Below are positions 38,228 through 44,123 of a DNA stretch of 64,000 nt, one piece after another. Positions within the stretch are counted from its first letter, which is position 1; each line of letters begins with the position of its first letter. The notes under the pieces are model-generated. The model was not told the origin of the DNA, ran no database searches, and worked only from the letters and a program-made list of their open reading frames with translations. Source of the DNA: an uncultured Poribacteria bacterium (lineage in GTDB: Bacteria; Poribacteria; WGA-4E; WGA-3G); assembly GCA_951813565.1 (NCBI GenBank), contig OX638351.1, positions 4,192,001 through 4,256,000 of the forward strand, in the 5' to 3' direction. Position numbers and translations under genes: made by a program.

Positions 38228-38764
38228 TTAGGTGCGTCTTTGCTCACGTCTTTCATACAAATGGCGGATGTTTTCCTCACATAGAAATTCAACAACCAAT
38301 CCGTTTTCAGCAAAAACCTCTTGCGATCCATACCATTGACTATCCACAGATTGTAGAATCGTTGCCTTTTGATGATGCTCATCCTCATACATAACTGCTA
38401 CAGCAATAAACTTTTTGTCGTCCGAGTCAAATTCAGTAAACGCTTCGGGTAACTCTTCAAAACCAACTCCATCTTCGGATGGTGTAATGCGGACTTGCAC
38501 GCACTGCTCCGGGTTCTGATAATTTCGGATGAACCATTCCAAAAAGTGTCCACCGTTCCGCTCGTTCGTCGTCGAATCGTCATCGTCAAGATAATCTATA
38601 TACTCTCCGAGAATTATCCTTTTATCATCAATAACGACTTTTTCGGTTCCATCAATAATCTTGTCTAACCGCTCCTGACATGCTGCAACACACTCGTCCC
38701 ACGCTTGTTCAGACATCCCTTTTGCGACAAGGATAACGTTCGTATCTATAACAACAGCGTCCAT
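38228..38764 (-). CDS. PIN-domain-like nuclease
   Basis: VVIDTNV, ILGEY, DSDDKKFIAVA, SVDS acidic motifs; start overlaps the ATPase stop (TAATG). Confidence 0.7.
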   Translation of the reverse strand: MDAVVIDTNVILVAKGMSEQAWDECVAACQERLDKIIDGTEKVVIDDKRIILGEYIDYLDDDDSTTNERNGGHFLEWFIRNYQNPEQCVQVRITPSEDGVGFEELPEAFTEFDSDDKKFIAVAVMYEDEHHQKATILQSVDSQWYGSQEVFAENGLVVEFLCEENIRHLYERREQRRT

Positions 38765-40089
38765 TAACCCTCCGCTTCCTTCTGCCGCTTTATTTGTTCA
38801 CGGGTCATTTTAGTAAGATCACCTCTCACATTTCCAAAAAAGTTTTTCGGCCAGTTTTTGATGTTTCCGAGTTCATCTAACTCCAGAGGCTTAATTTTAG
38901 AAGTCCCGTTTTCATTCTCGCAAAAATAGAGGGCAGTCTGATCTGCAGCAATTTTTTCTTCTGCAATTCGTAATTGCAAACGAGTTAACAGGTGTTCGCT
39001 ATGGCTTTCAACCAAAACCTGTAGTTTTCGTTCGTTGACAACCTCTATCAGCAAATCAGCAAGTTGAGATTGAACCATAGGGTGGAGATGAATGCCGGGT
39101 TGTTCCAGAATTAAGGTTGAACCTACTGGGGCATAGTAACAAAGCACTAACACCGGTAAAAATTGCGCTAATCCGTATCCCATGTCAACTAACGTAACTG
39201 TTGGACTGGAGGGAGTTTTTTGAATACGGACTTCATAATTTTTTCTGTCCCCTTCACCCGTCCAATCAAGTGAAAACGTATGCGCTAAATCCATTTCTTG
39301 CAGCCAATATGAAACTCTTTCTTCAATGGGAACACCATCAGTTTCATGTGATGTTTTCATATTTCGAACGCGTGCAGAGAGGAGGGCGTTAATAGTTTGA
39401 TCTCCCCACTGTTTGATATGTTTAGGATGTCCTCCAGACCAAGAATAGCGACGCCGTGGATTCACCCGAATTGGACCTAGATAGAAAACATACAAAAACA
39501 ATTCCTCAAACGCTGATACATATTTCTGTAAAAATTTTACAGATTCCGTTGTTCCTGATGACCACTTGCCGTAGCAGTTTTCTAGTCGTATGTTAGTTTC
39601 CGTTTTATTACTACGAGGAAAAGACGCGCGTCCTTCGCTGCACACTATTTCTGCGTACCCTTTTAGGGAAGACCCATAACTGAGTTTTTCTACAATTAAT
39701 TTTCCATTTTCTACTTGAATTATACTTTCATAAGCGAATTGATCTACTTTTTGCTCCCATGGAGTACCATCTTCAGGAATATTGATGAGAGAGCGAGGGT
39801 GGGTAAGGTGACACTGAAACTCAAATGCAAGTGGCGCTACCAATTTATGCGCATGAATCACCTCACGAAAATTTCCGAGGTTGACAAGAGTATTTTCGCT
39901 CCCAAAAAAGATAACTTCCTCCGCATCCTCCTGCTCCGTTGTCTGTTTAAGCAACAACAACATCTGCAACAGACTACTCTTCCCAGAACTATTTGTCCCA
40001 AAAAAGCCTGTCAACGGTGCAAGTTCCACCTCACCGCTATCTGCCCACGATTTGAAGTTTTTCATCCGGATATGTGTAATCATTTCCAT
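38764..40089 (-). CDS. DUF3696-containing ABC/SMC-like ATPase
   Basis: NFKSW, Walker A GTNSSGKSS, YLGP.R, DMGYGLAQ, LEQPGIHLHP, VESHSEH, C-terminal G.IKNWPKNFF. Confidence 0.85.
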   Translation of the reverse strand: MEMITHIRMKNFKSWADSGEVELAPLTGFFGTNSSGKSSLLQMLLLLKQTTEQEDAEEVIFFGSENTLVNLGNFREVIHAHKLVAPLAFEFQCHLTHPRSLINIPEDGTPWEQKVDQFAYESIIQVENGKLIVEKLSYGSSLKGYAEIVCSEGRASFPRSNKTETNIRLENCYGKWSSGTTESVKFLQKYVSAFEELFLYVFYLGPIRVNPRRRYSWSGGHPKHIKQWGDQTINALLSARVRNMKTSHETDGVPIEERVSYWLQEMDLAHTFSLDWTGEGDRKNYEVRIQKTPSSPTVTLVDMGYGLAQFLPVLVLCYYAPVGSTLILEQPGIHLHPMVQSQLADLLIEVVNERKLQVLVESHSEHLLTRLQLRIAEEKIAADQTALYFCENENGTSKIKPLELDELGNIKNWPKNFFGNVRGDLTKMTREQIKRQKEAEG

Positions 40090-40286
40090 TCACCACAAAA
40101 TCAGTGTAATCTGTGAAATCCGCATAATCCGCGATTCAGGATAATTCCAGTTCTGAAAACAATATACCATTTAAGGCTTTGTAACATTTGAAACCCATAT
40201 TATGTTGAATGTTCGAGGCGCAATGAATTGCGCGACTACAAACGCTCTGAATCTAAAGAAAAGTGTTTAAATATTACTATGATCGA

Positions 40287-41474
40287 CTAATCAGCAGCGG
40301 GTGCGAAGGTTTCAGGATTCTCTGCAGCTGCATCGTAATCGTCAATTAGTTTTGTAATACTCGGGTTTTTACCGCAAAGCGGGCAATTTTCATCTCGAGG
40401 GACTTTCATTTCGCGATAGGTCATATCGAGTGCATCATAGAGGATAAGCCTACCGATAAGCGGTTCACCGATACCGATAATATACTTAATCGCTTCCGTT
40501 GCCATCATCACGCCAATTACGCCTGGGAGCACGCCCAGGACACCTGCCTCACTTCAGCTCGGGACCATGCCTGGCGGTGGTGGTGTGGGATACATGCATC
40601 GGTAGCACGGACCCTCATTCGGTTTGAAGAGGGTAACCTGACCCTCAAACTGAAAAATACTACCGTGAACAATCGGCTTATTCATAAGCACCGCAGCATC
40701 GTTAACGAGGAAACGGGTAGCGAAGTTATCGCATCCATCAACAATCAGATCGTATTCCGAGAAGATTTCTTCCACGTTGTCAGCGGTCAAACGGAGATTA
40801 TAAGGTGTAATCTCAACATCCGGATTAAGAGACTTGATAGTCGTTGTAGCGGACTGAACTTTCGGTGTGCCTACTGCCTCTGTGCGGTGCAGTATCTGAC
40901 GCTGCAGGTTGCTTAACTCCACAACATCCGAGTCTATGACACCCATGTGTCCAATGCCAGCAGCACCAAGATACACGCCAGCAGGTGAACCTAATCCGCC
41001 TGCACCGACGAGTAAGACCTTCGCATCAAGCAGTTTAGCCTGCCCGCGTTCACCGACCTCAGTGAGCATAAAATGTCTGCTATAGCGGTCAAGCTGCTCG
41101 TGCGACATCTCTTTATCTTGTGCGGTTGGTAAACCAGCAGCTGACCAATCTCGGTATCCACCTGCCATGGATACGGTATCAGTATATCCCATTTCACGAA
41201 GCGACTTTGCAGCAAGCAATGAACGGAGCCCCGCGGCACAATAGACCACAACTTTTTGGTCACGATCAGGAATATAATCTTCAACAGAAAATTCCAGCAT
41301 TCCGCGTGTGACGTGCACAGCATCAGGGATGTAGCCAGCGCGATATTCGTCTTCATCGCGAACATCCAGAAGCACAAAGTCACTGTCGTTTTCCTGCTCC
41401 GCTTTTACATCAGCAACAGTCACTTCCGGAATTTCTGTTTTTGCCTCCTCCACGATTTGTCTGTAGGATTTCAT
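40287..41474 (-). CDS. moeB: Rhodanese-MoeB/ThiF fusion (395 aa), predicted selenoprotein; in-frame TGA at 40554-40556
   Basis: Rhodanese DVR..EY..G.IP.A and CAAGLRS; RYSRH, GAGGLGS, SNLQRQ, CYRC; PS-TGA-SEAGVLGVLPG; C-terminal CPLC in the same frame; hairpin downstream of the TGA. Confidence 0.85.
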
Positions 41475-42893: not shown

Positions 42894-44123
42894 GGGTGTG
42901 TAAAGTTTTTGTAGCAACTCTGATGTCCAGAGTTGTTGCGAGTTACAATAAAAATGGGTATCCTATCCTAATAAATTCAAAAAAGGAAGAGGATACCAAT
43001 GTTTAATATATCATTAGAGAACCCAGAAGTCAAAGAGATTTTAGAAGAGATTGCTCAGGTGGCAAGTGAACTTTCGTCATCCCGTTGCATATCATTAGAA
43101 GCAGCTGAGACTTGTATGTGAGACCTGATGCTTAGAAGTGGTCAAAAGTTGCGAGGTAAATGGACGCGTCGTGTCGTAGAGCGGATGTGTTATGTTGCGG
43201 CGCATTTTGACTATAGAGCTGCTGCGAAAGCGTTGGCTTTTCAAGGGATAGAAGTGAGCCATACGATAGTGCGCGAAAAAGTGCTTGAGTGGTCATCAGA
43301 CTTGAGCGTGTCAGCACAAGTTGCACCGCAAATACTTGCGGCTAATCAGCGTTGGTATGTAAGTTGTGATGGATGCTACACCAACTCTACTGATGGATGG
43401 CAAGAGACAAAAGTCGGTTGTGTTTACAGAGATTATCCACAATGTGGTTCTGATGCGGTGTCAAGTGCGAGAGAGACAAGTATCCGTTATGTTGCAACGC
43501 GTAATGATGCAGCACATTTTGGTAAGGAGTTATATGCGTTAGCAACCAATAGTGGCATCTACCAAGAAGCTATTGATACGCAAGAGATTGTGTTTCTTGG
43601 TGATGGTGCTGCGTGGATTTGGAACTTAGCAGATGAATACTTCCCCAATGCTGTTGAGATTGTGGATTACAAGAACGCGAAATCTCATCTGTCCGATGTT
43701 GCTAAAGTTGCGTTCGGAGAGACTGAAACAGAGGCGATACAAGACTGGGTAAAAACGACAGAACCTATCCTTTATGATGGCAACATTACAGAAGTAGCCG
43801 CACGCATTCGTGGCTTAGACACACAGCACCCGGAAGTATCGGATATTTTCGAAAGAGAAGCACGGTATTTTGAAAAACACGCTGCTCGTCCGCGGTATAA
43901 AAAGTTTCGGGAAAAAGGGTATCAAATCGGGAGTGGTGTGATTGAGAGTGCCTGTCCACATGTTGTCGGACAAAGGTGTCCACAAGCTGCTATGAGGTGG
44001 AAAGAGAAAGGTATCAACCCGGTGCTTGCCTTACGGTGTTTAGTGAAAAATGGGGACTGGGACAAATATTGGAATGAACTCCCACAGGCAGCATGACACT
44101 TATAACCAAAACTTTACGCACCC
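42894..44123 (+). mobile_element. Degenerate ISKra4-like insertion sequence (transposase remnant about 42999-44096)
   Basis: TIR GGGTGTGTAAAGTTT / AAACTTTACGCACCC; CDG, GDGAAWIW, IGSGVIESAC motifs; internal stop at ~43119 and shortened N-terminus. Confidence 0.85.

Follow-up and report, generated by a model that had tools for sequence, protein, structure and literature searches.

A rhodanese-fused MoeB/ThiF-type gene in an order of Poribacteria with a predicted selenocysteine at the crossover-loop position

INTRODUCTION

MoeB has been listed as a selenoprotein family since the Sargasso Sea study, which reported 11 sequences (Zhang, Fomenko & Gladyshev 2005, PMC1088965). According to the portions of the literature available to us, the selenocysteine (Sec)-containing form was found again in the Global Ocean Sampling (GOS) study of 2008 with 19 sequences (PMC2398784) and appears in reviews of 2022 and 2026 (PMC9312934, PMC13188914). 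Among the E1-like enzymes that use cysteine, Uba4 carries Cys202 in a flexible 'crossover loop', where it becomes joined to Urm1 through a thioester; the rhodanese cysteine, as a persulfide, attacks this bond and the thiocarboxylate is released (PMC7527816, available text). The available text on the mycobacterial enzyme MoeZR describes sulfuration of both MoaD and CysO (PMC3227635). Here we describe a gene in a 64,000-nucleotide (nt) stretch of the genome of an uncultured Poribacteria bacterium (contig OX638351.1, positions 4,192,001 to 4,256,000; hereafter the window), which encodes an N-terminal-rhodanese MoeB/ThiF-type (E1-like) enzyme and whose codon 307, a TGA, is very probably read as Sec, as judged from its sequence. 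A first-pass annotation of this DNA, made from the letters alone, had remarked that Sec-MoeB proteins had been predicted before, which the record from the Sargasso Sea study onwards bears out.

RESULTS

A single gene runs across an in-frame TGA

Two open reading frames (ORFs) on the minus strand, of 306 amino acids (aa; 40554..41474) and 81 aa (40287..40532), share one frame, and the sole stop between them is the TGA at 40556-40554, codon 307. With this TGA read as U, the two become a single gene of 395 codons followed by a TAG stop (41474-40287, minus strand). The read-through product of 395 residues has the context ...CMYPTPPPPGMVPS-U-SEAGVLGVLPGVIG..., in which Sec307 is flanked as ...PPPGMVPS-U-SEAGVLGVLPG.... 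The gene and its parts are as follows.

40287..41474, minus strand: whole gene, N-terminal rhodanese plus ThiF/MoeB adenylation domain, one TGA (ORFs, Pfam, NF006444)
41136..41417, minus strand: rhodanese domain, residues 20-113, with the loop C79-A-A-G-L-R-S (Pfam PF00581, 70 bits)
40380..41084, minus strand: ThiF/MoeB adenylation domain, residues 131-365 (Pfam PF00899, 286 bits)
40554..40556, minus strand: in-frame TGA, codon 307, predicted Sec (conservation, Cys pairing, structure alignment)

The NCBIfam model NF006444 (PRK08762 MoeB, N-terminal-rhodanese type) matches residues 5-384 with 539 bits against a cut-off of 449, and the Pfam ThiF match likewise spans the TGA. The cut-offs of three other models were not reached, namely NF005902 (MoeZ; 397 bits vs 647) and the E. 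coli-type MoeB and ThiF models TIGR02355 (225 bits vs 377) and TIGR02356 (250 vs 275). Together with the shared frame and the lone stop, the full-length NF006444 match supports the view of the first-pass annotation that one gene extends across the TGA. The active-site loop CAAGLRS, which the same annotation had taken for that of a cysteine rhodanese, is indeed present at residues 79-85 (Cys79 codon at 41238-41240), and C79, G82, R84 and S85 of this loop are invariant in 13 aligned sequences. Within the ThiF domain lie the nucleotide loop GAGGLGSP and two cysteine pairs of the Zn type, C290/C293 and C364/C367, all of which are invariant in the alignment with homologs, as are the catalytic aspartates D246/D249. 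The sequence features of an E1-like adenylyltransferase/sulfurtransferase are present, that is, the nucleotide loop, the catalytic Asp, the Zn cysteines and the rhodanese Cys, with the predicted Sec standing at position 307 for the crossover-loop Cys. A public database entry with 91% identity ('Candidatus Poribacteria bacterium, ThiF family adenylyltransferase') ends at 306 aa; the truncated form of the protein thus stands in databases.

The TGA is fixed in an order of Poribacteria and pairs with cysteine in homologs

The TGA extends well beyond this strain. Full-length matches (59-100% identity) with exactly one TGA were found in 40 of 41 genomes, comprising the window's own genome and 40 relatives, and the exception is 73% complete. 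Across the phylum Candidatus Poribacteria, 153 of 176 genomes hold an ortholog at E<=1e-125, all of them within one order; with the own genome excluded, orthologs occur in 108/111 genomes of family f1, 9/11 of f2, 28/29 of f3 and 7/7 of f4, and in 0/17 of f5-f11. The six genomes of the order without a match are 73-95% complete. Among the matches listed, 150 of 150 rows (153 matches in total) contain exactly one TGA. The TGA falls in the identical alignment column in all 83 orthologs that were fetched; these were extracted by a pattern demanding the stop, and every one of the 83 fetched loci yielded it.

Outside the phylum the same position is cysteine, another point on which the first-pass annotation was right. 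All 12 full-length homologs (54-63% identity) have Cys at position 307, in the motif PSC[SAQ]E[AVG]GVLGVLPG, and 79 loci of other phyla in a species-genome collection gave 73 that could be parsed, 71 with Cys and two with TGA. One of these TGA forms is from a genome of Candidatus Entotheonella (L109) and the other from one of Nitrospinota (L138), and in both genomes selA scores above cut-off. When aligned to solved structures, Sec307 falls on a cysteine in each case, Cys187 in E. coli MoeB (1JW9), Cys184 in E. coli ThiF (1ZUD) and, in Chaetomium Uba4 (6YUB), the Cys within TSCGEAG (chain index 200; Cys202 in the Uba4 paper), in agreement with the earlier assignment of the TGA to the E1-like active Cys. 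The spacing from the first CxxC is likewise the same, 290/293/307 here corresponding to 208/211/225 in yeast Uba4.

Pairwise differences between the orthologs at codon positions 1/2/3 amount to 0.25/0.13/0.53 over codons 319-395 vs 0.16/0.08/0.57 over codons 1-306. Since third positions dominate both before and after the TGA, both parts show the pattern of coding sequence. The invariant Zn-type cysteines C364/C367 lie in the downstream part.

A hairpin with frozen synonymous sites follows the TGA

The first-pass annotation had also described a hairpin resembling a Sec insertion sequence (SECIS) just past the TGA.

40522..40539, minus strand: predicted bacterial SECIS core, stem CCUGGG/CCCAGG, loop CGUGCU (synonymous entropy, consensus)

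The structure is as described, a perfect 6-bp stem 14 nt after the TGA, formed by CCTGGG (40539-40534) and CCCAGG (40527-40522) around the loop CGTGCT (40533-40528), with G-U at loop positions 2-3 and the loop beginning 20 nt after the UGA. The bacterial SECIS consensus, as given in a figure legend of the 2026 review (PMC13188914, Fig. 2), comprises a loop of 3-9 nt, a stem of 4-16 bp, a G in the first two loop positions, a spacing of 16-37 nt and a minimum free energy of <= -7.5 kcal/mol. The present hairpin lies within every one of these limits (a 6-nt loop with G as its second base, a 6-bp stem, a spacing of 20 nt and -11.7 kcal/mol over 45 nt). How often such a hairpin arises by chance was estimated for the class with at least 6 Watson-Crick pairs, a loop of 3-14 nt, G among its first two positions and a loop start 16-37 nt downstream. 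Its frequency was 3.4% at 40,000 random genome positions (0.5% with at least 5 G-C pairs) and 3.4% after 38,640 TGA triplets (0.41% with at least 5 G-C pairs), so a chance origin is not negligible.

Stronger support comes from the conservation of the TGA together with the frozen synonymous sites over the hairpin, and the synonymous conservation is the real evidence. We compared 131 codons, all with 4- or 6-fold degeneracy and each conserved in 90% or more of the 83 sequences. Their mean codon entropy is 1.67 bits, and codons 313-316 have the four lowest values of all (0.16, 0, 0 and 0.09 bits; CTG in 81/83, GGC in 83/83, GTG in 83/83 and CTC in 82/83), with codons 312, 317 and 318 also among the lowest eight. 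As a matched control we used the rhodanese-less Cys paralog from the same genomes (39/40 loci parsed), in which the homologous codons vary freely (1.91, 1.09, 1.56, 1.99 and 1.64 bits) and the codon at the Sec position is TGT in 22 and TGC in 17. Changes in the stem that retain pairing through G-U occur in 18 of the 83 sequences (CCA>CCG in 11, GTC>GTT in 5 and CTG>TTG in 2). In the Entotheonella and Nitrospinota TGA forms the stem is kept as CCUGGG/CCCGGG, while the loops differ (AGUUUUG and GGUCCU). With UGA and hairpin both conserved among the 83 orthologs, this hairpin very probably directs Sec insertion.

Selenocysteine machinery and support from further sequencing runs

A search for Sec machinery, proposed by the first-pass annotation as a check, found every component in the window's genome: selA (607 bits), selB (344), tRNA-Sec (selC, 78) and selD (372) all score above curated cut-offs, and tRNA-Sec adjoins selB. 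The selD gene (G000:C1:4610940-4611866, L011) has an in-frame TGA of its own, in the context ...VKCAG-U-ASKLAPG..., and a 6-bp hairpin comes after it; the loop of this hairpin begins 15 nt past the UGA (positions 19-21 when counting from its U).

Nine public sequencing runs cover most of the window, with no RNA run among those listed. Contigs of runs X1, X3 and X7, from two further studies (P1 and P3) of which neither is marked as the possible source, cross 40554-40556 with no differing letter, and the only variants listed are at 40497, 40509 and 40512. Run X9 was left out for the TGA, its bins 40576-40716 being without cover. In all four runs that were compared, contigs start or end inside the invariant hairpin region (40515-40545); it appears that several co-occurring strains have the frozen SECIS sequence in common, and this would break the assembly graph at this place.

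Sulfur carriers and genomic surroundings

Apart from the Sec gene, the genome's only E1-like gene is the Cys paralog. The genome has four carriers of the ThiS family, none of them beside the Sec gene. One carrier belongs to a CysO-type cluster of Rrf2, CysM-like, 3'-phosphoadenosine-5'-phosphosulfate (PAPS)-reductase-like, ThiS-like and JAB-NIL genes (G000:C1:303552-306890, L236), in which the carrier ends in ...AGGTLFS, the JAB protease is fused to a NIL domain and no E1 gene is present. The others are ThiS in a thiO-thiS-thiG cluster, an 84-aa MoaD-like gene and a 93-aa gene beside xanthine-dehydrogenase-type genes. The JAB-NIL (Mec-like) gene was considered for co-distribution with the Sec gene and set aside as non-discriminating: it is present in 165 of 176 genomes, including families without a Sec gene at E<=1e-125 (1/1 in f7 and 7/8 in f8). 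The Cys paralog (ThiF/MoeB without rhodanese, G000:C1:2784515-2785901) is 62% identical over the ThiF domain. In front of it, and overlapping it, is a 192-aa ORF without Pfam match that ends in GG; this ORF could be a ubiquitin-like or carrier partner extended at its N terminus.

In other phyla, cysO-like and cysM-like genes adjoin the Cys-type orthologs in 32 of 79 loci, and a JAB gene does so in 28, as found with hidden Markov models (HMMs) built from the same loci, with one representative each confirmed by Pfam. This context is that of the CysO pathway, whose mycobacterial activator MoeZR also serves MoaD, according to the available text of PMC3227635. Over 13 Poribacteria loci, the recurrent neighbours are only an 80-aa Zn-ribbon ORF, ATP-binding cassette (ABC) permeases and alanine racemase. 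In 6 of the 13 loci the 80-aa ORF, which has two CxxC pairs (MLPCPDCNNPL...SCDxCQ...), comes immediately after the Sec-moeB gene; it is missing from this place in the window. It and a repeat near the gene are listed here.

L225:8497-8742, L224:6597-6839, L226:8259-8504, L230:6706-6948, L223 and L232: 80-aa Zn-ribbon ORF, no Pfam family
40206..40246, no strand assigned: 33-nt dispersed palindromic repeat, core CGAGGCGCAATGAATTGCGCGACTACAAACGCT, just 3' of the gene, marking its 3' boundary

The palindromic repeat has 154 genome copies with at most 4 mismatches, and its summed contig depth exceeds that of the gene by a factor of hundreds; it resembles a dispersed element of the REP/MITE (repetitive extragenic palindromic/miniature inverted-repeat transposable element) kind and plays no part in the selenoprotein mechanism. 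The window has, between the Sec gene and the ABC permease genes, an AAA_15/AAA_21/DUF3696 ATPase (441 aa) with an overlapping 178-aa partner without Pfam match (38228-40089, minus strand). This pair is absent there in related genomes and looks like an inserted defence-type or mobile two-gene module. A 322-aa ORF without Pfam match (43128-44096, plus strand) is nearly identical over a long stretch, ...RETSIRYVATRNDAAHFGKELYALATNSGIYQEAIDTQEIVFLGD..., to an ORF at a distance of 2.4 Mb (G000:C1:1769765-1770595); it is probably a multi-copy transposase-like gene.

DISCUSSION

Role of the selenocysteine

By homology with Uba4 and MoeZ, we somewhat favour a route through an acyl-selenoester. The ThiF domain would adenylate the C-terminal glycine of a sulfur-carrier protein of the ThiS/MoaD/CysO type, and Sec307 in the flexible crossover loop would attack the acyl-adenylate to give an acyl-selenoester in place of the thioester of Uba4 Cys202. 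A persulfide on the rhodanese Cys79 would then attack, and the carrier would depart as thiocarboxylate. With selenium, the loop residue would be improved both as a nucleophile and as a leaving group. Our tentative best guess for the carrier is a CysO-like protein (cysteine synthesis), with a MoaD-like one (molybdenum cofactor) ranking next, or both, as for MoeZR.

Sec307 might instead be mainly a resolving or protective redox residue, forming a selenenyl-sulfide with the rhodanese persulfide or thiocarboxylate, or guarding against oxidation. Most bacterial selenoproteins are redox proteins (PMC1088965, available text), and Uba4 Cys202 is itself also credited with resolving or reverting reactive intermediates under oxidative stress (PMC7527816, available text). 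The position nevertheless equals the thioester cysteine of Uba4, and we consider a mainly redox role unlikely, yet the two roles are compatible.

Alternatives to decoding as selenocysteine

If translation really ended at the TGA, the gene would be in decay or would naturally encode a shortened protein of 306 residues, possibly with a separate 81-residue product starting from the GTG at 40532. Gene callers and public databases do carry a 306-aa protein (e.g. P0011, 'ThiF family adenylyltransferase'), and an ORF with a GTG start does exist downstream of the TGA. That GTG, however, falls within the invariant GVLGVLPG motif, and the 88 downstream codons are open and in frame in 83 of 83 orthologs, with change dominated by third positions. 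Truncation would also cut the ThiF fold, because the NF006444 match extends to residue 384, and would separate it from the invariant Zn cysteines C364/C367. We therefore regard termination at codon 307 as very improbable.

Slightly less credible still is read-through with another residue, either Trp by a changed code or Cys, Trp or Arg by near-cognate suppression. Such read-through would likewise keep the downstream frame under selection, but the homologs have Cys rather than Trp at this position, and selA, selB and most other matches are without internal stops. Of the 83 orthologs, 17 end in TGA, which thus serves as a normal stop as well in these organisms; the full set of Sec machinery and the conserved SECIS-type hairpin likewise speak against another residue. 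A sequencing or assembly error for TGC or TGT, in favour of which we found nothing, is next to excluded, so far as contigs can tell, by the recurrence of the TGA in 150 genomes among the matches listed and in the contigs of two further studies.

Several observations nonetheless weigh against decoding of the TGA as Sec by this hairpin, or against the proposed route. The 67 nt past the TGA show no excess stability (-14.6 kcal/mol vs a shuffle mean of -20.0, z = +1.95), and the terminal pair of the stem is broken in 5 of 83 sequences (GTA in 4 and CTA in 1). Compensatory stem changes, which the first-pass annotation had proposed to look for, did not turn up: double changes are absent from the 83 sequences, which show only strong conservation and single G-U-compatible changes, and covariation is not shown because the stem is too conserved. 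The motif GVLGVLPG is invariant in the Cys forms too and by itself favours a near-hairpin. As to the carrier, no sulfur-carrier gene lies within ~10 kb of the gene in the window or beside the Sec gene in the Poribacteria loci compared, and the nearest Cys-type relatives (Binatia, Thermodesulfobacteriota and Myxococcota) lack the cysO context, which leaves the carrier assignment weak. Finally, E. coli MoeB can do without its Cys187; a catalytic role for the crossover-loop position is thus not universal. In ThiF, the equivalent Cys184 is linked to ThiS as an acyl-disulfide.

Evolution and significance

A quick tree was made of 85 sequences with an N-terminal rhodanese. In it, the 16 Sec rows, of which 14 are from Poribacteria and the others from Entotheonella and Nitrospinota, fall on one side of a branch with a Shimodaira-Hasegawa-like approximate likelihood ratio test (SH-aLRT) value of 87, the midpoint root serving for drawing only. 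This topology is compatible with a single origin of Sec; it is no proof, an SH-aLRT of 87 not being strong. A more speculative proposal, which we hold to be possible but doubtful, is that one Cys-to-Sec switch occurred in the N-terminal-rhodanese MoeB lineage and was then carried into marine and sponge-associated Poribacteria, Entotheonella and Nitrospinota, and that the enzyme forms a natural acyl-selenoester on an E1 crossover loop, the first selenium-based E1-like intermediate. Were this true, the hairpin core shared with ocean Sec-MoeZ-type genes would mean that the module of Sec and SECIS predates both rhodanese fusion orders or was exchanged between them.

For annotation, the cut at 306 residues leaves the modelled protein without two Zn ligands and the catalytic-loop residue, in an enzyme that nearly all genomes of an order of sponge symbionts encode. 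What the equivalent cysteine does is settled for Uba4, while the one in E. coli MoeB can be dispensed with, and selenium at the crossover-loop position argues that the residue is rate-relevant in bacterial rhodanese-fused MoeB enzymes. The gene would offer a natural system for probing acyl-chalcogen intermediates in sulfur-carrier activation, and it adds to the picture of a large Poribacteria selenoproteome.

Comparison with known systems

The gene is very likely a well-supported new member of the known Sec-MoeB family, with reversed domain order and fixed across an order of sponge-associated bacteria. All 11 Sargasso Sec-MoeB sequences have Sec at the same position, in the motif PS-u-[AS]V[AS]GVLGVLPG (PMC1088965 supplement), share the hairpin core GGGCGUGCUCCC just downstream of the Sec codon as here, and resemble the present gene in combining a ThiF domain with a fused rhodanese. 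Where the Sargasso sequences are long enough, the rhodanese is C-terminal (MoeZ/Uba4 order), with YLYCYKGQRS after the ThiF part, whereas in the present protein it is N-terminal, with nothing after the ThiF domain. As published, the family is not defined by its domain order. The Sargasso sequences are fragments from unassigned ocean bacteria, whereas the present gene is fixed across one Poribacteria order; the available portions of the Sec-MoeB literature hold no mention of the N-terminal-rhodanese form or of Poribacteria for this family.

Members of NF006444 have the same domain order as the present protein, which is 54-63% identical to the Cys-type members, and those found elsewhere carry Cys at position 307; we found no experimentally tested function for this subfamily. 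E. coli MoeB (1JW9) and ThiF (1ZUD) share the adenylation domain (E-values 2e-58 and 3e-56) and, unlike the protein described here, have no rhodanese domain. Uba4/MOCS3 of eukaryotes and mycobacterial MoeZR, like the present enzyme, have a ThiF domain fused to a rhodanese. The likeness to the Uba4 type extends to a crossover-loop residue 14 and 17 positions past the cysteines of the first CxxC, which in Uba4, as far as the available text describes it, is the Cys that forms the thioester resolved by the rhodanese persulfide. The Poribacteria enzyme departs from Uba4 and MoeZR in its reversed domain order and in the predicted Sec that takes the place of this Cys.

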